From the NCBI GenBank assembly GCA_046329555.1, contig JAXLUK010000005.1, positions 91,186-155,185 of the forward strand: a DNA stretch of 64,000 bases, in the 5' to 3' direction. The stretch is from Chitinophagales bacterium. GTDB lineage: Bacteria; Bacteroidota; Bacteroidia; Chitinophagales; LD1. The notes under the pieces were generated by a model. The model worked only from the letters and a program-made list of their open reading frames with translations, was not told where the DNA came from and made no database searches. The position numbers and the translations under genes were made by a program. Shown here one piece after another: positions 13,225-54,087 of the stretch (position 1 is its first letter; each line of letters starts with the position of its first letter).

Positions 13225-13249
13225 CATTTGTTTAAGCGCGGAAGTTTAC

Positions 13250-13410
13250 ACGCAAAGAGCGCAGAGGATATTCACGCAAAGAGCGCAATGGTTTATACGC
13301 AAAGGGCGCAAAGGATATAAACGCAGAGAGCGCGAAGGATATACACGCAAAGTACGCAGAGGATGTACACGCAAAGAGCGCAATGGTTTATACGCAAAGA
13401 ACGCAAAGGA
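13250..13410 (+). repeat. Tandem repeat, 7 units of 23-24 bp, core ACGCAAAGAGCGCA(A/G)AGG
   Basis: Units start at 13250, 13274, 13297, 13321, 13345, 13369 and 13392. Confidence 0.95.
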
Positions 13411-17197: not shown

Positions 17198-17228
17198 CCG
17201 GTGGCCCATGGTCTCCGGATTTTTTATT
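17198..17228. terminator. Putative terminator between icd and the convergent ArsR gene
   Basis: atccgg...ccggat stem followed by a T-run. Confidence 0.55.
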
Positions 17229-17565
17229 GCAGCACTATGGGGATGTTTTGTTGCAAGATCAGTTTATGGGCAATGAATAGATGGAACTGGCGCAGCTTGG
17301 TTAACGTTAATTCGTTAAGCTGGAAGTGCAGCAGTTTATCTTTTTCAAAGCAATAAAGCAGCTCCGCTGCTTTCATTTCATCAATATGCTGCCAGATGGT
17401 AGCAGAAGCCAAAGGGATAGCGTCAAGAATATGCACATAGCTGATGGTTTTATTTTCCAGCAGCAGATTAATAATTTCGAGACGTGCCGGGTGGCCAAAC
17501 GCCCGGGAAATGGCGGCAATTTCATTTTGCGCCGAGGGGAAGAGGTGTGTTTTTCGGGTGCCCAT
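17224..17565 (-). CDS. ArsR/SmtB-family winged-helix regulator lacking the usual Cys motif
   Basis: MGTRKT..F...QNEIA..SRAFGHPARLEII and LPLA-like IPLASATIWQH match the Bacteroidota ArsR pattern as I recall it; KTISYVHI replaces the C(I/V)CGD segment. ATG at 17565. Confidence 0.82.
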   Translation of the reverse strand: MGTRKTHLFPSAQNEIAAISRAFGHPARLEIINLLLENKTISYVHILDAIPLASATIWQHIDEMKAAELLYCFEKDKLLHFQLNELTLTKLRQFHLFIAHKLILQQNIPIVLQ

Positions 17566-17678: not shown

Positions 17679-17854
17679 ATCGTATTATTGCGATAGTACG
17701 ATTCGATTAGCCAAAACCCGCACCACTGCTTGTTTACCGTACTATTGCGATTTTACGATTTAGGCTGAAACCCGCGCCACCGCTTGTTTACCGTACTATT
17801 GCGATTCTACGATTTGGCCGAAACCCGCATGAATGCTTATCGTAATATTGCGAT
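17679..17854 (+). repeat. Four-unit array of an ATCGYAATATTRCGAT-like palindromic motif upstream of the ArsR-family gene
   Basis: Motifs at 17679, 17736, 17790 and 17839 (spacing 57, 54, 49 bp). Same units as the arrays at 39.7-40.4 kb and 45.7-46.2 kb. Confidence 0.92.
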
Positions 17855-17943
17855 ACGACAAAAAAAGGGTAACCGGAAAACGCTAACACCCCAAAACTCG
17901 AATTAATCACCGGCGGCATGCACCTGTAAATAACATTATTGAT

Positions 17944-18164
17944 GGCGGCCGCCGCGCCCGCCTGCGTACCTTGGCGGGGTGCGGCGCCAGGTGCTCCACT
18001 CCCAAGGTTTTTTGGGTGGCGGCGGCGGCGGAAGACTTACGATATTTCAAACCGTATTTACCCCATGAAGGGCTATTTACTACAATATCGTAAGTCTCGC
18101 TCGCCGCTCCCCAAAAAACGCTTTCCGTTTCGCCCCTTGCCGCATTTTAGGAACCACTGCGCCA
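17944..18164 (+). repeat. Partial copy of the mosaic element's terminal hairpin module
   Basis: Close match to 45421-45660 (ggcggccgccgcg..., ctccactcccaagg, gacttacgatatt...aatatcgtaagtc); the first hairpin is half deleted. Confidence 0.93.
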
Positions 18165-39477: not shown

Positions 39478-40695
39478 GATGATTATGGCGGCTGCGGCAG
39501 CAGGCGCGAAAGTTGCAGCGGCCGCCTGCTGCCGCACCGCGCTTTTCACTTCAAGTCCTCACGCCGGCCGCAACTGCATCTCTCTTGACGGCTCCATTTG
39601 AAGACATCGTAAGTCTTTAAGACTTACGATGTCTTCAGGCCGGCGCTGCGGGCTTTTCGTTGCAATCGCTGCCGCTCGGCGCAAATACTTCGGGGCCACA
39701 ACCAAAACAATCATGACCATCCAGCGCCTTAAATCGTAAAATCGCAATAATACGGCAAGCAAGCAGTAGCAAGGGTTCCAGCCTAATTTTGTTTAAAGCT
39801 CAAAACCTTAAATAGGCAACTGCCTTTGCTCGACCCCCATAGAGGTCGCATCCCTGTAGCACCGAGATTCATCGAATCGTAAAATCGCAATAATACGATA
39901 AGCAATGGCGCGGGTTCCAGCCGATGCCACCCCCAAATCGTAATATTACGACAAGCATTCATGCGGGTTTTGGCCAAATCGTAGAATCGCAATAGTACGG
40001 TAACCCAGCAATGGCGAGGGTTTTAGCCTAAATCGTAAAATCGCAATAGTACGGTAAACGTGCCGTGACGAGGGTTTCAGGCCAGGTTGTCCTTTACCGC
40101 AAATCATTAAATACAGATACGCCTTTCGATACCGACCCCGTAGGGGTCGCATCCCTGTAGCACCGAGATTCAGCAATTCGTAAAATCGCAAAAATACGAT
40201 AAGCAATAGCGCGGGTTTCAGGCGATGTCACCCCCAAATCGTAATATTACGATAAGCATTCATGCGGGTTTTGGCCAAATCGTAGAATCGCAATAGTACG
40301 GTAACCCAGCAATGACGCGGGTTTTAGCATCTATCGTAAAATCGCAATAGTACGGTAAACGTGCCGTGACGAGGGTTTCGGCGCATCGGTAAATCTGAAA
40401 TGCATACCCAAGCGCAGCAGTTTTCAATTTACCACCTACCATTTGCCCTATCTTGTGGCGCAGTGGCCCTTAAATCGCGGCAAGGGGCGAAACGGAAAGC
40501 GTTTTTTGGGGCGGCGGCGTAAGACTTACGATATTGTAGTAAATAGCCCTTCATGGGGTAAATACGGTTTGAAATATCGTAAGTCTAGCTCGCCGCCCCC
40601 AAAAAACCTTGGGAGTGGAGCACCTGGCGCCGCACCCGCCTGCGTACACCCGCCTCAACTCAAACACCCGGTACGCAGGCGGCGCGGCGGCCGCC
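39478..40695 (-). mobile_element. Non-coding mosaic repeat element (BIME/MITE-like), copy 1, 1218 bp, 9 operator-like units
   Basis: Inverted homologue of 45421-46498. Motifs at 39741, 39884, 39937, 39986, 40040, 40185, 40238, 40287 and 40341; perfect 39-bp palindrome at 39599-39637. Mobility is inferred. Confidence 0.8.
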
Positions 40696-40738
40696 ATACT
40701 TTGATGTACATTCTCTTCAATTTCCCTAACTTCCCTTC

Positions 40739-41503
40739 ATGAAATTATCGCGCATTGATACTCGTGCTCCGAAAAAGTTGCACAAAGACAAAATCAAAAA
40801 TGAACTCATTAAACTTAAAATCAGGCTGGGCGAGTTGCAGAATGTTCTTTTCGCACAAGGTAAGCACAGTGTACTGGTGGTGCTTCAGGGCATGGATGCC
40901 TCGGGAAAAGATGGCGCCGTGCGCAAGGTGTTTGATGCGGTGAATCCCGCTGGTTGTAAGGTGTTCTCCTTCAAAAAACCTACCGATTTGGAAATGAAGC
41001 ACGACTTCCTGTGGCGGGTGCACCAAGTGGTGCCCGAAGCCGGCATGATTCATATTTTTAACCGCTCGCATTACGAAGATGTACTGATTCAACGGGTGCA
41101 TCATTGGGTAGATGAAAAAACCATTGCGCAACGGTTTAAACACATCAACGCCTTCGAAAAACTACTGACGCAAAACCATACCGTAGTACTCAAGTTTTAT
41201 CTTCATGTTTCGAAAGAAGAACAGTTGGTTCGACTGAAAGAGCGCATCAGCGATCCTACTAAAAACTGGAAATACAACGCCAATGATTTGCAGGAGCGGA
41301 AGTATTGGGACGACTACCGCAAAGCCTATGAAGATGTCTTTAAGGAATGTTCCAAAGCTGCGCCATGGCATATCATTCCGGCCGACGATAACTGGTACAA
41401 AGAGTATCTCATTTGTTCGGCCATCGTGCGCGAGCTCGAAAAACTATCGCTTGCTTTTCCCAAACTGCCAGCGCAGCCAGCTACCAGTAAAAAAACTAGC
41501 TAA
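40739..41503 (+). CDS. ppk2: PPK2-family polyphosphate kinase (polyP:nucleotide phosphotransferase)
   Basis: LQGMDASGKDG, HDFLWR, FNRSHYEDV, KFYLHVS and ADDNWY. Confidence 0.95.
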   Translation: MKLSRIDTRAPKKLHKDKIKNELIKLKIRLGELQNVLFAQGKHSVLVVLQGMDASGKDGAVRKVFDAVNPAGCKVFSFKKPTDLEMKHDFLWRVHQVVPEAGMIHIFNRSHYEDVLIQRVHHWVDEKTIAQRFKHINAFEKLLTQNHTVVLKFYLHVSKEEQLVRLKERISDPTKNWKYNANDLQERKYWDDYRKAYEDVFKECSKAAPWHIIPADDNWYKEYLICSAIVRELEKLSLAFPKLPAQPATSKKTS

Positions 41504-42215
41504 ACACCGCCTCCAGCACTTCATGCGATTTCAGCGCGCCGAAACCATCGATGTGCAATTGATAATATCGAAGCAAGGCGTTTAAGAGCTCGCGCCGCGC
41601 CGACTTGGGTATTGATTGCTGCGCCACAGTAGTTTGCATCAACTGGTGTAAATACGCGCTTAACGATTGGTTCAGCACGCGGTTCGACATCGAGCCGGCC
41701 GCTACAAAAACGCCTTCCTGCAAATCGAAGCACGGGGTTTCCGGCTCGAAATTATCGTGCGGACCAAACCCCAGCAGATGCGCATATTGTAACAGGAATT
41801 GCAAATGGAAAAACGGGGCAACTGTTGCCGCTTCATCCAGCGCCACCAACTGATCATACACCAACTCGAACAACTCCTCATGCACATCGTGCTCTTTTAG
41901 CGTTTTCGACACCACCTCAACCAGAAACAACGCCAGTCCTGATTTTACCGTATCGTAAGGAATGGTTTGAAAAGTAAATGCCCGGCGGAATTCGCGGATG
42001 CGCTGTAACGATTTATTGTCGCGCTGCGTGACATCTAACTCCAGCAACGACAACGGCCGCATCATCACGGCCTTGCTGAGGGTGCGTTGCGACCGCACCC
42101 CATTCACCAGGTATGACACCAGACCTGCCTTTTCCGTAAAAATGCGCGCAATCACACTCGTTTCCGAGTATTTGATGGATTGTAATACAATGCCGCGCGT
42201 TTTTAGTTCCACCAC
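41496..42215 (-). CDS. recO: DNA repair protein RecO
   Basis: TRGIVLQSIKYSETSVIARIFTEKAG, RPLSLLE and KSHEVL. Confidence 0.95.
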   Translation of the reverse strand: MVELKTRGIVLQSIKYSETSVIARIFTEKAGLVSYLVNGVRSQRTLSKAVMMRPLSLLELDVTQRDNKSLQRIREFRRAFTFQTIPYDTVKSGLALFLVEVVSKTLKEHDVHEELFELVYDQLVALDEAATVAPFFHLQFLLQYAHLLGFGPHDNFEPETPCFDLQEGVFVAAGSMSNRVLNQSLSAYLHQLMQTTVAQQSIPKSARRELLNALLRYYQLHIDGFGALKSHEVLEAVFS

Positions 42216-42254
42216 GCAATATTAGAGGAAATCAGGCAGCAGGCCTTTCCTTTC

Positions 42255-43160
42255 CTACGCCTTAAAATGTTTCGCGATGATTTCCGCTTTGTGCTCGCGG
42301 ATATTCTCCAGCAACGCAGCCGCGGCCGGACTCAACTTCTTCCCCTTCATCCAAACCAGGCGCCACATGGTTTGCAGCGGCAGGCCGGGATAGGGCAGCA
42401 CCTGTAAATCGCCGCTTTTGAGTTCGTTCTTCAAGCCAATCAACGGCATTATCGAATAGCCCAATCCGGCCATCACCGCCTGCTTCACCGCTTCATTTGA
42501 CGTCAGCTCCATAGCCGGTATTACCGAAGGCGCCTGTTTTCTGAGAAAGCGTTCCATCACCATGCGCGTAGCCGACCCCTGCTCTCTGAAAATCCAGGGC
42601 AACTGCGCCAGTTGCTTTCGCTGCAGGGGTTTTCGCGCCCGTTCTTTTCTTCCTACCAACACCAAATGATTGGGCATTAGGTTCACCTGGTCTAAGGCCA
42701 GCTTTTCAGGCAATACCGATACCAACGCAAAATCAGGCGTGTTTTGATGTAAAGCCTCTACTACCAATCCTTTGTTGGTAACATCCATAGCGATCTTCAC
42801 CCGCGGATGACACTGCACAAAATCACTGAGAAAATAGGGCATTACATATTTTCCGGTCGACACTACCGCTATGGAAACGCGACCCGTTAATTCGCCTGCT
42901 TGCTGCAACACCTGCTCTTCTATGGCATCCGCTTCGCGCAGCATGGTAGCCGCATGACTGGCTATCTGCTGACCAAGAGCCGTTACATACACCTGCCGGC
43001 CCACCACTTCCAGCAAGGGTGCACCGCATTGTTCCTGCAGGTTTTTTAGCTGGATGGAAATAGCCGGTTGCGTAAGGTGCATGTCTTGCGCCGTTTTCGA
43101 CATGCTGCGCGTAGCGCATACGCTTAGAAAAATGCGCAACTGATGTAAGGAAAGATGCAT
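42255..43160 (-). CDS. LysR-family regulator (CbbR/CysL-like)
   Basis: LHQLRIF...HLTQPAISIQLKNL HTH, REQGSATR and SNEAVKQAVMAGLG; divergent from icd. Confidence 0.95.
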   Translation of the reverse strand: MHLSLHQLRIFLSVCATRSMSKTAQDMHLTQPAISIQLKNLQEQCGAPLLEVVGRQVYVTALGQQIASHAATMLREADAIEEQVLQQAGELTGRVSIAVVSTGKYVMPYFLSDFVQCHPRVKIAMDVTNKGLVVEALHQNTPDFALVSVLPEKLALDQVNLMPNHLVLVGRKERARKPLQRKQLAQLPWIFREQGSATRMVMERFLRKQAPSVIPAMELTSNEAVKQAVMAGLGYSIMPLIGLKNELKSGDLQVLPYPGLPLQTMWRLVWMKGKKLSPAAAALLENIREHKAEIIAKHFKA

Positions 43161-43254
43161 ATCTCAATATAAATTAACGTTTATATTATAGATTAAAATT
43201 ATAAATTTTAATTTATGATTAAAGAACCGCCTCTTTGCATCACAAAATCAAACT

Positions 43255-44691
43255 ATGCAAAAAATAACTGTAGCCAAGGGCGATGGAATTGGCCCGGAGA
43301 TTATGGATGCCACGCTGAAGATTTTATTCGCAGCAGGCGCCAAAATTGAAGTGGAAGAGATTGAAGTAGGCGAGAAAGTATATCTGGCCGGAAACACCGC
43401 CGGTATTGCCAAAGAATCATGGGATAGCATCCGCCGCAACAAAGTTTTCTTAAAAGCCCCAATCACTACCCCGCAGGGCGGTGGTTACAAAAGCCTGAAC
43501 GTGACCACGCGCAAATTTTTGGGCTTGTACGCCAACGTTAGGCCGTGTGTCAGCTTCGATCCGTTTATCAAAACCAAGCATCCGAATATGGACGTGGTCA
43601 TTATCCGCGAGAACGAAGAAGATTTGTACGCTGGCATTGAGCACCAGCAAACCGACGAGGTAGTACAGTGCTTAAAGCTGATTAGCCGGCCGGGCTGCGA
43701 GAAAATTGTGCGCTACGCCTTTGAATATGCCCGTCAGTACAATCGCAAAAAAGTGACCTGCTTCACGAAAGACAATATCATGAAGCAAACTGATGGCTTG
43801 TTCCATCAGGTGTTTGATGAAATCGCGAAGGAATATCCCGAAATTGAAAACGAACACTGGATCATTGACATTGGCGCCGCAAAACTGGCTGATACACCAG
43901 AAGCGTTTGATGTGGTGGTGATGCCGAACCTGTACGGCGATGTATTGTCGGACGTAGCTGCGCAAATTGCCGGCTCTGTTGGTCTGGCCGGCTCTGCCAA
44001 CATCGGCGAAACCTGCGCCATGTTCGAAGCGATCCACGGTTCAGCACCGCGCCGCGCAGGCCAAAACATGGCTAACCCTTCCGGTTTATTGCAAGGTGCC
44101 ATCATGATGCTGAGTCATATCGGACAAAGCGATGTGGCTGAAAAAATTCAAAATGCGTGGCTGAAAACAATTGAAGACGGCCTGCACACCTACGACATCT
44201 TCAAAGAAGGTGTGAGCAAGCAAAAGTTAGGCACTTCAGAATTTGCCGATGCGGTGATTGCGAACTTAGGACAACAGCCTAAAACGTTGAAGGCGGTGCA
44301 TTATGGCGAAGCGAAGCCGATTCAACTACCAAAATACCAACGCAAGGAGAGCAAGAAAAAGGAGTTGGTTGGCGTAGATATTTTTGTTCAATGGAGTGGC
44401 TTGCGCGCCGACGAGTTGGCCGAAAAAGTGCAACAACTGAATGCCGATGGCGTGGCCTTGAGCATGATTACCAATCGCGGTATTAAAGTATGGCCAGAGG
44501 GATTTGAAGAAACCTTCTGCACCGACCACTGGCGCTGTCGTTTCAAGCCGGTGAACGGCCATCACATCAGCAAGCAGGAGATTATTCGGTTGCTGGCAAA
44601 GGCCGAGGAAATTCATTTGGACACCGTAAAAACAGAGAACCTGTATGAGTTCGATGGAAAGCCCGGCTTCTCGCTCGGACAAGGACAATAA
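43255..44691 (+). CDS. icd: Second NADP-dependent isocitrate dehydrogenase (long type with C-terminal extension)
   Basis: KGDGIGPEIM, KAPITTPQGGGYKSLNV, KDNIMK, PNLYGD, FEAIHGSAP and C-terminal MITNRG...FCTDHWRCRF. Confidence 0.95.
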   Translation: MQKITVAKGDGIGPEIMDATLKILFAAGAKIEVEEIEVGEKVYLAGNTAGIAKESWDSIRRNKVFLKAPITTPQGGGYKSLNVTTRKFLGLYANVRPCVSFDPFIKTKHPNMDVVIIRENEEDLYAGIEHQQTDEVVQCLKLISRPGCEKIVRYAFEYARQYNRKKVTCFTKDNIMKQTDGLFHQVFDEIAKEYPEIENEHWIIDIGAAKLADTPEAFDVVVMPNLYGDVLSDVAAQIAGSVGLAGSANIGETCAMFEAIHGSAPRRAGQNMANPSGLLQGAIMMLSHIGQSDVAEKIQNAWLKTIEDGLHTYDIFKEGVSKQKLGTSEFADAVIANLGQQPKTLKAVHYGEAKPIQLPKYQRKESKKKELVGVDIFVQWSGLRADELAEKVQQLNADGVALSMITNRGIKVWPEGFEETFCTDHWRCRFKPVNGHHISKQEIIRLLAKAEEIHLDTVKTENLYEFDGKPGFSLGQGQ

Positions 44692-44965
44692 CGAACTGCA
44701 ACTGCCGGCAAAATTCCCCTTGATTAAAGGGGAATTTTTGCCCTCGGAAGCGCGTGATTTACTGGTGAACCTGATTAACTCAAAAATTCAGTTTCATCAA
44801 ATGCGTTCTTTTAGTCACCGCGAGCGATTCGGCGAAGTAGACCATGCTTCTGAACAACGCATTGAGCAGCTCACACAGCAACGCCGCAATCTGCAACAAA
44901 TGCTGGAGCACGCGCAAGGCGTGTTATCGATTCGCGCTGAAATTGTGATGGAGAAAACGATTTAG
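44645..44965 (+). CDS. Small conserved hypothetical protein downstream of icd
   Basis: LIKGEF...EARDLL.NLINSKIQFH...S.RERFG pattern. The true start is probably downstream of 44645. Confidence 0.6.
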   Translation: MSSMESPASRSDKDNNELQLPAKFPLIKGEFLPSEARDLLVNLINSKIQFHQMRSFSHRERFGEVDHASEQRIEQLTQQRRNLQQMLEHAQGVLSIRAEIVMEKTI

Positions 44966-44971
44966 TATCAT

Positions 44972-45340
44972 TTACTTCTTAAAAGTGAAGTAAACCGCCA
45001 GCACCAGAAATCCAAAGCCAATGAGATGGTTGGTGCGCAGCGGTTGTTGCTTAAAGAATACCACGGTAAATAGCACAAAAACGCTAAGCGTAATTACTTC
45101 CTGAATAACTTTTAATTGCCACAAGGTAAATGGTCCGCCATTTTCAATAAATCCGATTTTATTGGCTGGCACTTGCGCACAATATTCAAAAAAGGCAATA
45201 GCCCAGCTGATGACTATTACCGCAAACAATCCTAACTGGCTAAACGCCGGATATTCTTTAAATTTCAGATGGCCATACCAGGCCATGGTCATAAAAATAT
45301 TCGAGGTAATCAACAGAAGAATGGTGTAAATGCCGCGCAT
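44972..45340 (-). CDS. DMT-superfamily small membrane protein (DUF486)
   Basis: SNIFMTMAWYGHLK, SWAIAFFEYC.QVPAN and LKVIQEVITL. Confidence 0.92.
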   Translation of the reverse strand: MRGIYTILLLITSNIFMTMAWYGHLKFKEYPAFSQLGLFAVIVISWAIAFFEYCAQVPANKIGFIENGGPFTLWQLKVIQEVITLSVFVLFTVVFFKQQPLRTNHLIGFGFLVLAVYFTFKK

Positions 45341-45420
45341 GATTCAAAGATGCAAAATTAGCGTACCATCGTCATCTTATTGTCCTGCAAGCATCGCTAT
45401 AACTGAATAGTTATTTTTTG

Positions 45421-46498
45421 GGCGGCCGCCGCGCCGCCTGCGTACCGGGTGTTTGAGTTGAGGCGGGTGTACGCAGGCGGGTGCGGCGCCAGGTGCTCCA
45501 CTCCCAAGGTTTTTTGGGGCGGCGAGCTAGACTTACGATATTTCAAACCGTATTTACCCCATGAAGGGCTATTTACTACAATATCGTAAGTCTTACACCG
45601 CCGCCCCAAAAAACGCTTTCCGTTTCGCCCCTTGCCGCGATTTAAGGGCCACTGCGCCACAAGATAGGGCAAATGGTAGGTGGTAAATTGAAAACTGCTG
45701 CGCTTGGGTATGCATTTCAGATTTACCGATGCGCCGAAACCCTCGCCACGGCTTGTTTACCGTACTATTGCGATTTTACGATAGATGCTGAAACCCGCGT
45801 CATTGCTGGGTTACCGTACTATTGCGATTCTACGATTTGGCCAAAACCCGCATGAATGCTTATCGTAATATTACGATTTGGGGGTGGCATTGGCTGGAAC
45901 CCGCACCATTGCTTATCGTATTATTGCGATTTTACGATTTGCTGAATCTCGGTGCTACAGGGATGCGACCCCTATGGGGTCGGTATCGAAAGGCGTATCT
46001 GTATTTAATGATTTGCGGTAAAGGACAATCTGGCCTGAAGCCCTCGTCACGGCACGTTTACCGTACTATTGCGATTTTACGATTTAGGCTGAAACCCGCG
46101 TCATTGCTGGGTTACCGTACTATTGCGATTCTACGATTTGGCCGAAACCCGCATGAATGCTTGTCGTAATATTACGATTTGGGGGTGGCATCGGCTGGAA
46201 CCCGCGCCATTGCTTGCTTGCCGTACTATTGCGATTTTACGATTTAAGGCGCTGGATGGTCATGATTGTTTTGGTTGTGGCCCCGAAGTATTTGCGCTGA
46301 GCGGCAGCGATTGCAACGAAAAGCCCGCAGCGCCGGCCTGAGGACATCGTAAGTCTTTAAGACTTACGATGTCTTCAAAGGGAGCCGTCAAGAGAGATGC
46401 CGTTGCGGCCGGCGTGAGGACTTGAAGTGAAAAGCGCGGTGCGGTAGCAGGCGGCCGCTGCAACTGATGCGCCTGCTGCCGCAGCCGCCAAAATCATC
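45421..46498 (+). mobile_element. Non-coding mosaic repeat element, copy 2, 1078 bp, 8 operator-like units
   Basis: Motifs at 45759, 45813, 45862, 45915, 46060, 46114, 46163 and 46220; terminal hairpin modules; near-perfect palindrome at 46339-46377. Confidence 0.8.
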
Positions 46499-50860: not shown

Positions 50861-52360
50861 TTACGGCTCCAAAACACATTTGAACACCTTCTGGTAACCA
50901 TTCCCCGCATTGACCTTTATTAGGTAATGGCCCACAACCAGCCCATTCAAATCGCAGTTAATATTCCCACTCTTACCCATCCCAACATACATTTTTAATC
51001 GGCGCTCTTCCAGGTCAAATACACTGATGGTAAAGTTGGTTTCGCTATTGAATAGATAATTGAATTGGGCATCTCCGCGAATCGGATTTTCAACTAAGCG
51101 AAAAAATTGTGGCTCGCTTTTTTGGGTCTCAGCAATGTTCGTGGTAAAAGTTGTATCGCAGCCACTGCCAATTAGCTTGCCGGTTTTGTAGGATGGCAGA
51201 TTGGGAAGTGGATAGGTTTGATGCAGCAAGGGTATGGCCATGGGTTCATACCGGCAGGCCAGGCCAGGGCTATCCGGCGCATGAATAACATGCAGCTTAC
51301 TTGTTAAATCCCAGGTATCGTAATAGATTTCGCCAAAAGGAGTTAACAATCCATGGCCGATTGGATTAGGTTGCCCATCGTAGGTAGCCGAGTCCCATTT
51401 ACAAATCAGTATCGCAGAACTAAGGATATCGGGGGCCTGTAAATCATACTGTCGAATAGTCCAGTAATTATTAACGTACAAATATCTGCCGGAAGGAGAG
51501 AACACGCTGGAAAGCGCCCCTGTAATCCCTGCAGGCACAACCAAAGTATCACCATGAGGGCCAATGAACGGAGGGGTAAATTGGGTGACTCCTGTAAACA
51601 CGCCTTCACAGCGATCAAAATCCAAAATATTTATGGGTACATGAACTGTGCTAAAAACGTATTTATCGCCCTGCTCTGAGAATTTCGCATAACCATATCC
51701 TTCTCCCAAAATGGAATCGCCGATTACCTGGGTTTTCATTAGCCGAATCGTATCGGGGGTAACTAAAAAAATAAAGTATTTATTGTTGTAGCCTTCTTTT
51801 TGCACCAGCCACCAATCGCGGCCGTTGCCATGCCTTGTGGCGGTAATGTTTCTGGAAGTAGGTGCGTAGTTAATGCGGTTTCTTTTCGACTTAAGCACAT
51901 AACCATTGTTTTGGCGTTGCACTACGGCATAGTACAAAACGGTTTGTAAAGTATCGTGTTTCTGATGAAAATCCTCATCGCTAACGGAGGGATATACCAA
52001 ATAGAATTCGTTAGAATTCTTTGGGAGAAAAATAGAATTCTGAACGCCCTGATTGTTATGCGGGAAATACACAGCAAATGCCGTATCGGTTAAGGGGTAG
52101 GCATTGGCTAAGGTGTCAAAATTATCTGTTACAATATGTTGCCCTTCCGAGTATAGGGTGCGGGCAGTAACAGAATCGTATATGCTTGCTGCCGTCCCAA
52201 TGGCAAACAAAGGGAGATATGGCGGATTGGTAACTTGCGGTGGATTAGAAGAAAAGGTTAACGAACTAAAAAATGAGGCAACCGGCCATTTATAATCAAA
52301 TTGACCAAAAACGCTTAGGGAAACTCCCATAAAAAGCAATACCCCCAAAAGCCGATGCAT
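50861..52360 (-). CDS. T9SS cargo beta-propeller-like protein, copy A1 (original CTD)
   Basis: Signal peptide, RHGNGRDWWL, FSPSGRYLYV, PDSPGLAC and LPNLPSY motifs; CTD RLVENPIRG...GHYLIKV. Confidence 0.88.
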   Translation of the reverse strand: MHRLLGVLLFMGVSLSVFGQFDYKWPVASFFSSLTFSSNPPQVTNPPYLPLFAIGTAASIYDSVTARTLYSEGQHIVTDNFDTLANAYPLTDTAFAVYFPHNNQGVQNSIFLPKNSNEFYLVYPSVSDEDFHQKHDTLQTVLYYAVVQRQNNGYVLKSKRNRINYAPTSRNITATRHGNGRDWWLVQKEGYNNKYFIFLVTPDTIRLMKTQVIGDSILGEGYGYAKFSEQGDKYVFSTVHVPINILDFDRCEGVFTGVTQFTPPFIGPHGDTLVVPAGITGALSSVFSPSGRYLYVNNYWTIRQYDLQAPDILSSAILICKWDSATYDGQPNPIGHGLLTPFGEIYYDTWDLTSKLHVIHAPDSPGLACRYEPMAIPLLHQTYPLPNLPSYKTGKLIGSGCDTTFTTNIAETQKSEPQFFRLVENPIRGDAQFNYLFNSETNFTISVFDLEERRLKMYVGMGKSGNINCDLNGLVVGHYLIKVNAGNGYQKVFKCVLEP

Positions 52361-54087
52361 AACTAAGGGATTAAAGTGAACTTAATCATATCAACCGCTC
52401 CGCTACCGTAGGTAGCTTTAATCAGGTAATTGCCTGAGCTGAGGTCGCCGATATCCCAAAATAGATTTCCTTCCAACCCGTGATTTTGGTAGTGCCTTAA
52501 AGGCCTGCCTTGCAGATCAATTACATCGATTTTGTATTCCATGGCACAAGTAAATTTATAAGCAATATTTAACTGGCCGTGTACTGGATTTTCAACTAAG
52601 CGAAAAAATTGTGGTTCGCTTTTTTGGGCCTCAGCAATGTTCGTGGTAAAAGTTGTATCGCAGCCACTGCCAATTAGCTTGCCGGTTTTGTAGGATGGCA
52701 GATTGGGAAGTGGATAGGTTTGATGCAGCAAGGGTATGGCCATGGGTTCATACCGGCAGGCCAGGCCAGGGCTATCCGGCGCATGAATAACATGCAGCTT
52801 ACTTGTTAAATCCCAGGTATCGTAATAGATTTCGCCAAAAGGAGTTAACAATCCATGGCCGATTGGATTAGGTTGCCCATCGTAGGTAGCCGAGTCCCAT
52901 TTACAAATCAGTATCGCAGAACTAAGGATATCGGGGGCCTGTAAATCATACTGTCGAATAGTCCAGTAATTATTAACGTACAAATATCTGCCGGAAGGAG
53001 AGAACACGCTGGAAAGCGCCCCTGTGATCCCTGCAGCTAAGGCCAGGGTATCACCATGAGGGCCAATGAACGGAGGGGTAAATTGGGTGACTCCTGTAAA
53101 CACGCCTTCACAGCGATCAAAATCCAAAATATTTATGGGCACATCAACCGTACTAAAAACGTATTTATCGCCCTGCTCTGAGAATTTCGCATAACCATAT
53201 CCTTCTCCCAAAATGGAATCGCCGATTACCTGGGTTTTCATTAGCCGAATCGTATCGGGGGTAACTAAAAAAATAAAGTATTTATTGTTGTAGCCTTCTT
53301 TTTGCACCAGCCACCAATCGCGGCCGTTGCCATGCCTTGTGGCTATTATGTTTCTGGAAGTAGGTGCGTAGTTAATGCGGTTTCTTTTCGACTTAAGCAC
53401 ATAACCATTGTTTTGGCGTTGCACTACGGCATAGTACAAAACGGTTTGTAAAGTATCGTGTTTCTTATGAAAATCCTCATCGCTAACGGAGGGATATACC
53501 AAATAGAATTCGTTAGAATTCTTTGGGAGAAAAATAGAATTCTGAACGCCCTGATTGTTATGCGGGAAATACACAGCAAATGCCGTATCGGTTAAGGGGT
53601 AGGCATTGGCTAAGGTGTCAAAATTATCTGTTACAATATGTTGTCCTTCCGAGTATAGGGTGCGGGCAGTAACGGAATCGTATATGCTTGCTGCCGTTCC
53701 AATAGCATACAAAGGGGGATGAGGCTGATAGGTAATTTGCGGCGGATTAGAAGAAAAGGTTAACGAACTAAAAAATGAGGCAACCGGCCATTTATAATCA
53801 AATTGACCAAAAACGCTAAGGGAAACTCCCATAAAAAGCAATACCCCCAAAAGCCGATGCATAACTAAGGGATTAAAGTGAACTTAATCATATCAACCGC
53901 TCCGCTACCGTAGGTAGCTTTAATCAGGTAATTGCCTGAGCTGAGGTCGCCGATATCCCAAATTAGATTTCCTTCCAACCCGTGATTTTGGTAGTGCCTT
54001 AAAGGCCTGCCTTGCAGATCAACTACATCGATTTTGTATTCCATGGCACAAGTAAATTTATAAGCAATATTTAACTGGCCGTGTACT
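51084..54087. repeat. 1502-bp direct tandem duplication
   Basis: The 19-mer ggattttcaactaagcgaa recurs at 51084, 52586 and 54088; the intervening units are nearly identical. Confidence 0.97.
52363..53862 (-). CDS. T9SS cargo protein, copy A2 (chimeric: A body plus CTD of the upstream gene)
   Basis: Same body as 50861-52360, but the CTD after RLVENP matches 53865-54087 with 2 substitutions. Confidence 0.88.
   Translation of the reverse strand: MHRLLGVLLFMGVSLSVFGQFDYKWPVASFFSSLTFSSNPPQITYQPHPPLYAIGTAASIYDSVTARTLYSEGQHIVTDNFDTLANAYPLTDTAFAVYFPHNNQGVQNSIFLPKNSNEFYLVYPSVSDEDFHKKHDTLQTVLYYAVVQRQNNGYVLKSKRNRINYAPTSRNIIATRHGNGRDWWLVQKEGYNNKYFIFLVTPDTIRLMKTQVIGDSILGEGYGYAKFSEQGDKYVFSTVDVPINILDFDRCEGVFTGVTQFTPPFIGPHGDTLALAAGITGALSSVFSPSGRYLYVNNYWTIRQYDLQAPDILSSAILICKWDSATYDGQPNPIGHGLLTPFGEIYYDTWDLTSKLHVIHAPDSPGLACRYEPMAIPLLHQTYPLPNLPSYKTGKLIGSGCDTTFTTNIAEAQKSEPQFFRLVENPVHGQLNIAYKFTCAMEYKIDVIDLQGRPLRHYQNHGLEGNLFWDIGDLSSGNYLIKATYGSGAVDMIKFTLIP

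Follow-up and report, generated by a model that had tools for sequence, protein, structure and literature searches.

The stretch of DNA analysed here, called the window throughout, comprises 64,000 nucleotides of a Chitinophagales bacterium (C7:91186-155185) and belongs to a genome of 3.5 Mb in 11 contigs with a G+C content of 46%. It contains two full copies and one rearranged partial copy of a mosaic element in which arrays of a short palindrome are combined with GC-rich hairpin modules. The genes around these copies are housekeeping genes, encoding the N-terminal subunit of transketolase, PPK2, RecO, a LysR regulator, isocitrate dehydrogenase, a DUF486 membrane protein, a second dehydrogenase of the Iso_dh family and RibF. 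A further gene encodes P0001, a small protein of the ArsR/SmtB family that we predict to bind the arrays. The features are located as follows.

39478..40695, minus strand: full mosaic element, copy A, delimited by inverted-repeat pairs, sequence and segmentation
45421..46498, plus strand: full mosaic element, copy B, delimited by repeat pairs, sequence and segmentation
45421..45731, plus strand: left flank of copy B, modules M1-M3 (terminal GC hairpin, long hairpin of ~110 nt with AGACTTACGATAT stems, spacer)
45732..45940, plus strand: operator block 1 of copy B, subunits A, B, C and D of the 213-bp repeat
45862..45877, no strand: perfect 16-bp palindrome ATCGTAATATTACGAT, with a second perfect copy at 40238-40253
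45941..46032, plus strand: linker in copy B, module L, with the small GC hairpin GCGACCCCTATGGGGTCG
46033..46245, plus strand: operator block 2 of copy B
46246..46498, plus strand: right flank of copy B, modules M4-M6, with a 37-nt palindrome at 46340-46376 and a terminal hairpin between conserved AGCGCGGTGC and GCAGCCGCC
17679..18164, plus strand: rearranged partial copy, with four operators at 17679-17854, then modules M1-M3 at ~17944-18164
17224..17565, minus strand: P0001, a 113-aa cysteine-less ArsR/SmtB-family protein, the predicted array binder

A first-pass annotation of the same DNA had described two full copies and a partial one, always intergenic, with a defined module order, 21 motif copies and no credible open reading frame (ORF). 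Our analysis bears out each of these points. The 1.1-1.2 kb inverted pair and the partial copy at 17679-18164 were recovered, all copies are intergenic here, sequence and segmentation agree on the order of modules, and 21 distinct sites were counted in the window, the two perfect ones included. ORFs within the element reach at most 115 aa and have no Pfam match. Read in element orientation, copy A starts with the terminal hairpin M1, the long hairpin M2 and M3, continues with two A-B-C-D operator blocks with linkers between, followed by an extra linker and unit, and closes with M4-M6. In the partial copy, M1-M3 come after the operators instead of before them, and the array lies outside M1. Tandem Repeats Finder detected periods of 53-54 bp within all three copies, and the 14-mer core of the palindrome matches the window seven times, against 0 expected from 100 shuffles.

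Copies A and B are inverted repeats of each other. Their arms share 97% identity over 713 nt (39900-40612/45503-46215) and 95% over 306 nt (39478-39783/46193-46498), and the innermost 99 nt (40597-40695/45421-45519) are 100% identical. Together the two copies bracket a 4.7-kb housekeeping segment at 40696-45420 (ppk2, recO, lysR-type, icd and DUF486). The complete identity of the inner 99 nt compared with 94-97% elsewhere suggests either gene conversion or an invertible 40696-45420 segment.

Operator arrays across the genome

A profile search of the genome with the ~53-bp unit returned 103 matches in 11 arrays, which answers the question of genome copy number raised by the first-pass annotation.

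C4: arrays at ~615, 655, 680, 732 and 771 kb
C7: arrays at ~6, 109, 131 and 137 kb
C8: array at ~31 kb
C11: array at ~29 kb, ending the contig

The core of the arrays is a 213-bp higher-order tandem repeat made of four subunits in the fixed order A-B-C-D.

Subunit A: 57 bp, long palindrome form
Subunit B: 54 bp, long palindrome form
Subunit C: 41 bp, short palindrome form
Subunit D: 61 bp, long palindrome form

Every subunit consists of a GAAACCCGC box, a short variable stretch and the 16-bp palindrome ATCGTAATATTACGAT or a close variant of it, with the consensus [A][T/C]CGTA[A/C/T]TATT[A/G]CGAT. The long form found in three of the four subunits (e.g. ACCGTACTATTGCGATTTTACGAT) joins a 16-bp core of the short type to a second right half-site 8 bp further on. 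By a stricter count, at least 118 units hold both the GAAACCCGC box and the palindrome, 94 of them in the long and 24 in the short form. Each locus contains one to ~5 repeats of the 213-bp unit, corresponding to 4-20 operators, and all array units are oriented head-to-tail. In some arrays the units abut directly and module L is missing; in others, including the window copies, a GC-hairpin linker of ~90 bp extends the period to 301 bp. A variant array, C4e (C4:771195-772042), has six repeats with a period of 157 bp, each combining a long-form unit with ~90 nt related to the start of M4. Tandem amplification can thus capture neighbouring modules.

Within the unit, conservation peaks in the palindrome, at 1.83 bits per position, followed by the GAAACCCGC box (1.66), the spacer (1.42) and the unit junction (0.81). 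The first-pass annotation had stated that a motif no more conserved than its spacers would speak against it, and the measured values point the other way; every part of the unit is still fairly conserved. Unit identity is nearly the same within arrays (0.85) and between them (0.83), indicating that the four-subunit unit predates its dispersal. The perfect 16-mer occurs at 15 sites in the genome. All genomic matches to the motif lie within arrays, be it the 24-mer with up to four mismatches or the 16-mer with up to two, and a regulon of singleton operators was rejected for want of any site outside the arrays. Nine of the 11 arrays fall within two stretches of ~150 kb, and contigs C1, C5 and C6, together 2.1 Mb, have none; the dispersal of the arrays looks local.

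The ATCGTAA half-site is reused in the hairpin stems of the window copies, as first proposed, a pattern that does not extend to the whole genome, where the stems mostly read GACTTACGAAGTC (81) versus GACTTACGATGTC (19). ATCGTAA itself is barely enriched genome-wide, with 734 occurrences against ~548 expected.

Three further interpretations of the arrays were discarded. An all-against-all comparison of ORFs within 5 kb around each array yielded no recurrent partner gene. When the unit was inspected by eye as a Bacteroidota promoter (TTTG, 19-21 nt, TAnnTTTG), the spacings did not fit. CRISPR (clustered and regularly interspaced short palindromic repeats) arrays have identical repeats, unique spacers of ~25 nt or more and usually cas genes; here the variable stretch measures only ~8-16 nt and recurs between units, within a higher-order repeat of four types.

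The palindrome as a predicted ArsR operator and its candidate binder

Operators of the ArsR/SmtB family are imperfect palindromes located in the regulator's own promoter. Inspection of the DNA upstream of nine relatives of P0001 gave the following sites.

L089/L090: P0009, then a MIP channel gene; exact ATCGTAATATTACGAT, identical to subunit C, 22 bp before the ATG
L094: P0005; exact ATCGTAATATTACGAT, 12 bp before the ATG
L091: P0026, a canonical CxC ArsR, then ArsM-like and LMWPc ArsC-like genes; ATCGTAATATTGCAAT, 10 bp before the ATG
L082/L083/L088: P0003 and P0015; CGTAATATTGCGAT, after which ATTGCAAT recurs every 8 bp, ~45 bp before the ATG
L086/L087: P0006; TTCGTAATATTGCAAT, upstream of the ATG
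L085: P0007; ACGTAAAAATGCAATATTACGT, agreeing with the long form at 17/20 positions, 60-80 bp before the ATG

Upstream of the ArsR homologues at L084 and L095 there was no clear site. In no fewer than four unrelated lineages, then, ArsR homologues have a single palindrome 10-50 bp upstream of their start codon; two of these lineages have the exact sequence and two more a near-exact one. The 14-mer CGTAATATTRCGAT is confined to loci of ArsR homologues and has 0 matches in 1.37 Mb of control DNA, namely 80 Bacteroidota loci fetched via the conserved isocitrate dehydrogenase gene. In a blind scan of metagenome contigs, the long form matched once, at a perfect 10-4-10 palindrome (ATCGTATTAT-TGCG-ATAATACGAT) lying over the -10 box in the promoter of an ArsR-family gene from an unrelated organism. 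By position and recurrence, the palindrome is the predicted operator type of a Bacteroidota ArsR subfamily with the signature 'MGxSK...GHPAR', in agreement with the regulator-type palindrome of ArsR type named in the first-pass annotation. Judged from its sequence, the array cargo consists of canonical ArsR operators.

The promoters of L082, L086, L088, L089, L091 and L094 share the joint consensus ATCGTAATATT(A/G)C(G/A)AT, sometimes followed by ATTGCAAT repeats. We regard this consensus as a candidate operator of the Bacteroidota ArsR family, and found no published description of such a consensus in the searchable literature.

Letter for letter, the array palindrome is that found upstream of the ArsR homologues. 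The arrays differ from ordinary ArsR/SmtB operators in that the site is present in at least 118 copies, none at the canonical promoter position, and lies beside housekeeping genes. Hairpin modules separate the sites from the nearest gene starts, at distances of >100-250 bp, and no site occurs singly. The idea that the element rewires the adjacent ribF, tkt, ppk2 and DUF486 genes has therefore lost ground: with hairpin modules keeping them far from the flanking start codons, the operators are unlikely to act in the classical way.

P0001 has 497 relatives at E ≤ 1e-3, none more than 42% identical, which form a Bacteroidota family beginning MGxSK...QNxIA...GHPAR. The family profile matches PagR, YgaV, BigR and CzrA in the PDB at E-values of 1e-15 to 1e-12. 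The AlphaFold2 model of P0001 (predicted local distance difference test, pLDDT, 87) has ArsR-family repressors as its top Foldseek matches, and P0001 is confidently predicted to adopt the ArsR/SmtB winged helix-turn-helix fold. Among the ORFs of this genome, the family profile identified only two of the ArsR family. P0001 scored 126 bits and is the only member of the MGxSK subfamily; the second ORF (C4:350360-350731) scored 55 bits, belongs to another subfamily, has no motif upstream and was rejected as the binder. The earlier nomination of 17224-17565 as the candidate ArsR-type protein is strengthened by these results. P0001 retains the T-I-x-Q-H recognition helix and lacks the CxC motif of helix alpha3, with KTISYVHI where its relatives have xCICGDI; the cysteines expected of an As(III) inducer site are thus missing. 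Its gene is monocistronic, without cargo genes, and adjoins array C7b, with the start codon 114-116 bp from the first palindrome.

A second link between the arrays and this regulator system comes from synteny. Relatives with a P0001-like TIWQH helix show the gene order YgaP-like, OsmC, rhodanese, operator, arsR. In the present genome, YgaP-like, OsmC (65% identical) and rhodanese (63% identical) genes are found at C4:613560-614838, and after the rhodanese gene, in the place held by arsR in relatives (L082, L086), there are hairpin repeats and array C4a (C4:615104-616113). With 22 array flanks among ~3000 genes, the chance of each positional link is ~1%. The adjacency of P0001 and the presence of C4a at the arsR site are two independent positional links of the arrays to the regulator system. 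The OsmC-rhodanese locus (C4:613560-616113) is a possible birthplace of the array family.

Hairpin flanks and the mosaic vehicle

The GC-rich hairpin flanks are separately dispersed structured repeats. The M4-M6 modules (M456) have ~30 copies in the genome by nhmmer, mostly away from arrays. Their alignment shows conserved loop sequences around a variable central hairpin: between invariant AGCGCGGTGC and GCAGCCGCC, seven different stem sequences occur, and the hairpin is kept in all of them. M1-M3 are likewise present without an array at C4:892650-893000, and M1 stands alone at C10:39011. The full order of M1-M3, array and M4-M6 is found at four or five loci, and the remaining loci lack one or both flanks.

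The imperfect inverted ends of the first description were found at the very termini, where GGCGGCCGCCGC and GGCGGCTGCGGC agree at 10/12 positions, a match of the kind expected of terminal inverted repeats in transposable elements of the miniature inverted-repeat type (MITEs) and one that recurs in the full copies. Further inward there is no significant likeness, and long homologous terminal repeats were rejected (alignment score 26 against a shuffle mean of 21 ± 4). The target duplications that the first-pass annotation suggested looking for were not seen, as the flanks of the four full copies have no common direct repeat. With imperfect inverted ends of only 12 nt and no consistent target duplication, the element is best described as a recurrent mosaic and not as a demonstrated transposon. 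In this genome, no transposase gene is bracketed by element ends or recurrently adjoins the arrays.

A gene for a Y1_Tnp (IS200-like) transposase is present at C4:888635-889742, flanked by a different hairpin family. A tandem array of hairpins stands in front of it and can be read through as a repetitive pseudo-ORF; the gene lies 3 kb from the stand-alone M1-M3 copy on the same contig. On C1 and C4, both of uniformly negative GC skew, almost every stand-alone M456 repeat is on one and the same strand; on C7 their orientation is mixed. By analogy with elements mobilised as single strands (HUH/Y1), this suggests that M456 orientation may be biased relative to replication.

An IS110-family insertion sequence (Pfam DEDD_Tnp_IS110 and Transposase_20) is also present in the genome in five copies, located at C4:653543-654927, C4:272948-274330, C4:839811-841145, C1:688131-689445 and C1:612738-614039. 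Four of the five are inserted at one point in the conserved M456 loop (GCACCGCGCTTTTC^ACTNCAAGTCC), and the family appears to target the M456 hairpin repeats. Other IS110 members use repetitive extragenic palindromic (REP) sequences as targets.

The first-pass annotation knew of no named element with this architecture. That judgement does not stand for the overall build, since BrickBuilt, BOX and bacterial interspersed mosaic elements (BIMEs) are modular in a similar way, although by sequence the element is not a member of any of them. BrickBuilt of Porphyromonas gingivalis combines a MITE with a minisatellite in the form of a leader, a core of 23-nt repeats and a tail (Klein et al. 2015, PMC4596501), and has ~19 intergenic copies, many incomplete, with inconsistent target duplications (PMC4596501). 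It shares with our element the phylum, the intergenic location, the succession of leader, tandem core and tail, and the small inverted ends. However, its 23-nt repeat has no spacers and no described protein-binding site, whereas the present element has a 213-bp repeat of four subunits with a repressor operator in each, and in sequence the two are not similar.

Pneumococcal BOX elements consist of boxA, repeated boxB and boxC (Croucher et al. 2011, PMC3049150). Like the element described here, they are non-coding, dispersed in intergenic regions and built from pairing terminal modules around a variably repeated internal module. In contrast, boxB measures 45 bp and holds no known operator, BOX is thought to act mainly via RNA structure, and the elements come from another phylum and have no homology to ours. 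The BIMEs and REP clusters of E. coli include sites for integration host factor (IHF; RIP/RIB) and are associated with RAYT transposases (PMC2817692, PMC3333891). They too are intergenic mosaics of GC-rich hairpins and linkers, some of which bind a host protein, and a Y1 gene is present in our genome as well. The difference lies in the protein and the number of sites, a general nucleoid protein with one site per element in BIMEs as opposed to the operator of a specific repressor 4-20 times per locus, and in orientation, which alternates among REP hairpins and is head-to-tail among the array units. Across these named families, IHF is the sole protein with a described site. The vehicle is therefore familiar and the operator-array cargo is new.

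On the M4-M6 flank, the Flavo-1 RNA motif (RF01705; Weinberg et al. 2010, PMC2864571) scores 21.5-21.6 bits, below its gathering score of 42, and no Rfam family matches at gathering score anywhere in the window. Both Flavo-1 and M4-M6 are multi-copy in Bacteroidota, and they have in common two conserved loops, GAUUGaAaCGaAAAG and CUUGnAGyGaAAAGCG, around a central stem. M4-M6 differs from the model in a 91-nt insert in place of 17 nt, an extra 3' hairpin and the GCAGCCGCC tail.

Proposed function and competing explanations

The explanation we favour, with moderate confidence, is a mosaic repeat with a satellite-like array of ArsR operators that may act as a sink or docking platform for P0001. 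Dimers of P0001 would occupy the arrays, and binding would probably be constitutive, because the sensor cysteines are gone. Because the array sites do not lie at promoters, the arrays would form a high-capacity sink or docking platform rather than classical promoter operators. As for their origin, an arsR promoter-operator segment may have been amplified into the four-subunit unit, perhaps at the OsmC-rhodanese locus. The amplified unit would then have spread as multi-unit blocks along with the GC-rich hairpin repeats, which would supply the short inverted ends of the element.

A more far-reaching joint reading, which we put forward tentatively and consider unlikely as a whole, is that P0001, a former metal sensor, constitutively coats ~120 operators in 11 arrays. 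The arrays, derived from its own amplified promoter-operator, spread by a MITE-like vehicle and located within a few hundred kb, would then serve as a naturally occurring DNA sponge or as a chromatin-like domain marker. The logic of such a domain marker would be comparable to that of MatP-matS and of the ArsR-fold centromere protein AspA.

Several observations weigh against a dedicated operator platform for P0001. The helical phasing of about five turns proposed at first holds only in part: the centres of the 16-bp cores are 54, 49, 53 and 57 bp apart, equal to 4.7-5.4 turns, and the operators are only loosely in phase. The strong conservation of the unit could stem from recent amplification and not from selection. 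Arrays occupy all intergenic contexts, divergent, tandem and convergent, as expected of a neutral or selfish repeat, and a model based on ArsR only does not account for the conserved GAAACCCGC box. The distance between the P0001 start codon and its nearest palindrome falls outside the 10-50 bp seen in the homologues. P0001 itself is divergent, with at most 42% identity to its relatives and 30.1 bits against an NCBIfam ArsR cut-off of 55, and it could have changed in specificity or be decaying. Finally, the arrays are present in one genome only. The exact unit pattern has 0 matches in 185,579 species representatives, the sole match on a metagenome contig is an unrelated single operator, and neither array unit nor flank module was found at the 80 isocitrate dehydrogenase loci, all of which are at most 83% identical.

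The main rival, which we regard as doubtful, is a neutral or selfish minisatellite that descended from an arsR operator and sits on a MITE-like mosaic without host function, so that occupancy by P0001 is slight or irrelevant. It would grow by unequal recombination or slippage and spread by recombination or mobilisation in trans. The presence of arrays in all intergenic orientations without a recurrent partner gene fits this account, and the clustering of nine of the 11 arrays suggests local spread. Also in line with it are the variable number of units, the truncated arrays and the co-amplification of part of M4 in the 157-bp C4e array, as well as the restriction to one lineage and an architecture like that of BrickBuilt and BOX (PMC4596501, PMC3049150). 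However, a neutral satellite would not lead one to expect that conservation within the unit is highest in the palindrome, that 15 perfect 16-mers persist, or that an intact, folded protein of the cognate family is kept next to an array. Moreover, if P0001 is expressed, some occupancy of at least 118 high-quality sites is hard to avoid.

It is very improbable that the palindromes serve the element itself, as sites where its transposition or recombination machinery binds, instead of being ArsR sites. The short inverted ends, the REP/MITE-like behaviour of the hairpin modules, the strand bias of M456 on C1 and C4, the Y1 transposase and the IS110-family element that targets the M456 loop are all compatible with such a role. 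Yet the same palindrome stands alone before arsR in unrelated genomes without any such element, no transposase gene is recurrently found beside the arrays, and the sites occupy the element's interior and not its ends.

We give equally little credence to arrays that act as RNA, either as processed units of ~53 nt or as a cis-regulatory structured RNA. M456 is RNA-like in its conserved internal loops and compensatory stems, and the weak Flavo-1 match points in the same direction. Against this, the window holds no Rfam family at gathering score, the unit's conserved core is the very DNA palindrome of promoter operators, and the arrays occur in both orientations relative to neighbouring genes. Flavo-1 itself lies sense, antisense or outside transcripts in Flavobacterium psychrophilum (PMC9723704), which indicates a DNA repeat.

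Copies created or inflated by repeat mis-assembly are hardly credible: 213-bp tandem repeats are difficult to assemble and the C11 array ends its contig, but the other ten arrays are contig-internal with unique flanks, the copies differ by 3-6% like real paralogous repeats, and independent Logan short-read assemblies of SRR26348420, SRR26348422 and SRR26348423 reproduce gene-element junctions. In these assemblies, P0001 and its upstream region are present and break exactly at the first palindrome, and the DUF486-M1 junction is also present.

Decoy arrays for transcription factors have been built in synthetic biology and are discussed for eukaryotic satellites. Operator-array DNA sponges of the synthetic kind (PMC7686491, PMC7826281) and the natural decoy sites for PhoB (PMC8599769) share with the present arrays a multitude of transcription-factor sites able to titrate their factor. 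The sponges are engineered, however, and the PhoB decoys are scattered single sites, whereas the arrays described here are both natural and tandem. In the searchable literature we found no bacterial chromosome with a naturally occurring tandem array of operators for one specific repressor. A 2024 review devoted to prokaryotic MITEs (PMC10969869) mentions only IHF sites and does not contain the terms "transcription factor", "operator" or "repressor". Comprising a single small protein, a single 16-bp site and 11 arrays, the locus is a directly testable case, and it offers a concrete route by which a mosaic repeat could amplify and scatter operators. Such scattering could seed new regulation or free a regulator for an architectural role.

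Two other repeats lie in the window. An intergenic 24-bp tandem repeat at 13247-13410 (TACACGCAAAGAGCGCAAAGGATA, 6.9 copies) is unrelated to the element. At 50861-53862, two adjacent paralogous ORFs of 499 aa share 300 nt at 98% identity (51075-51374 and 52577-52876), which looks like an ordinary tandem gene duplication.

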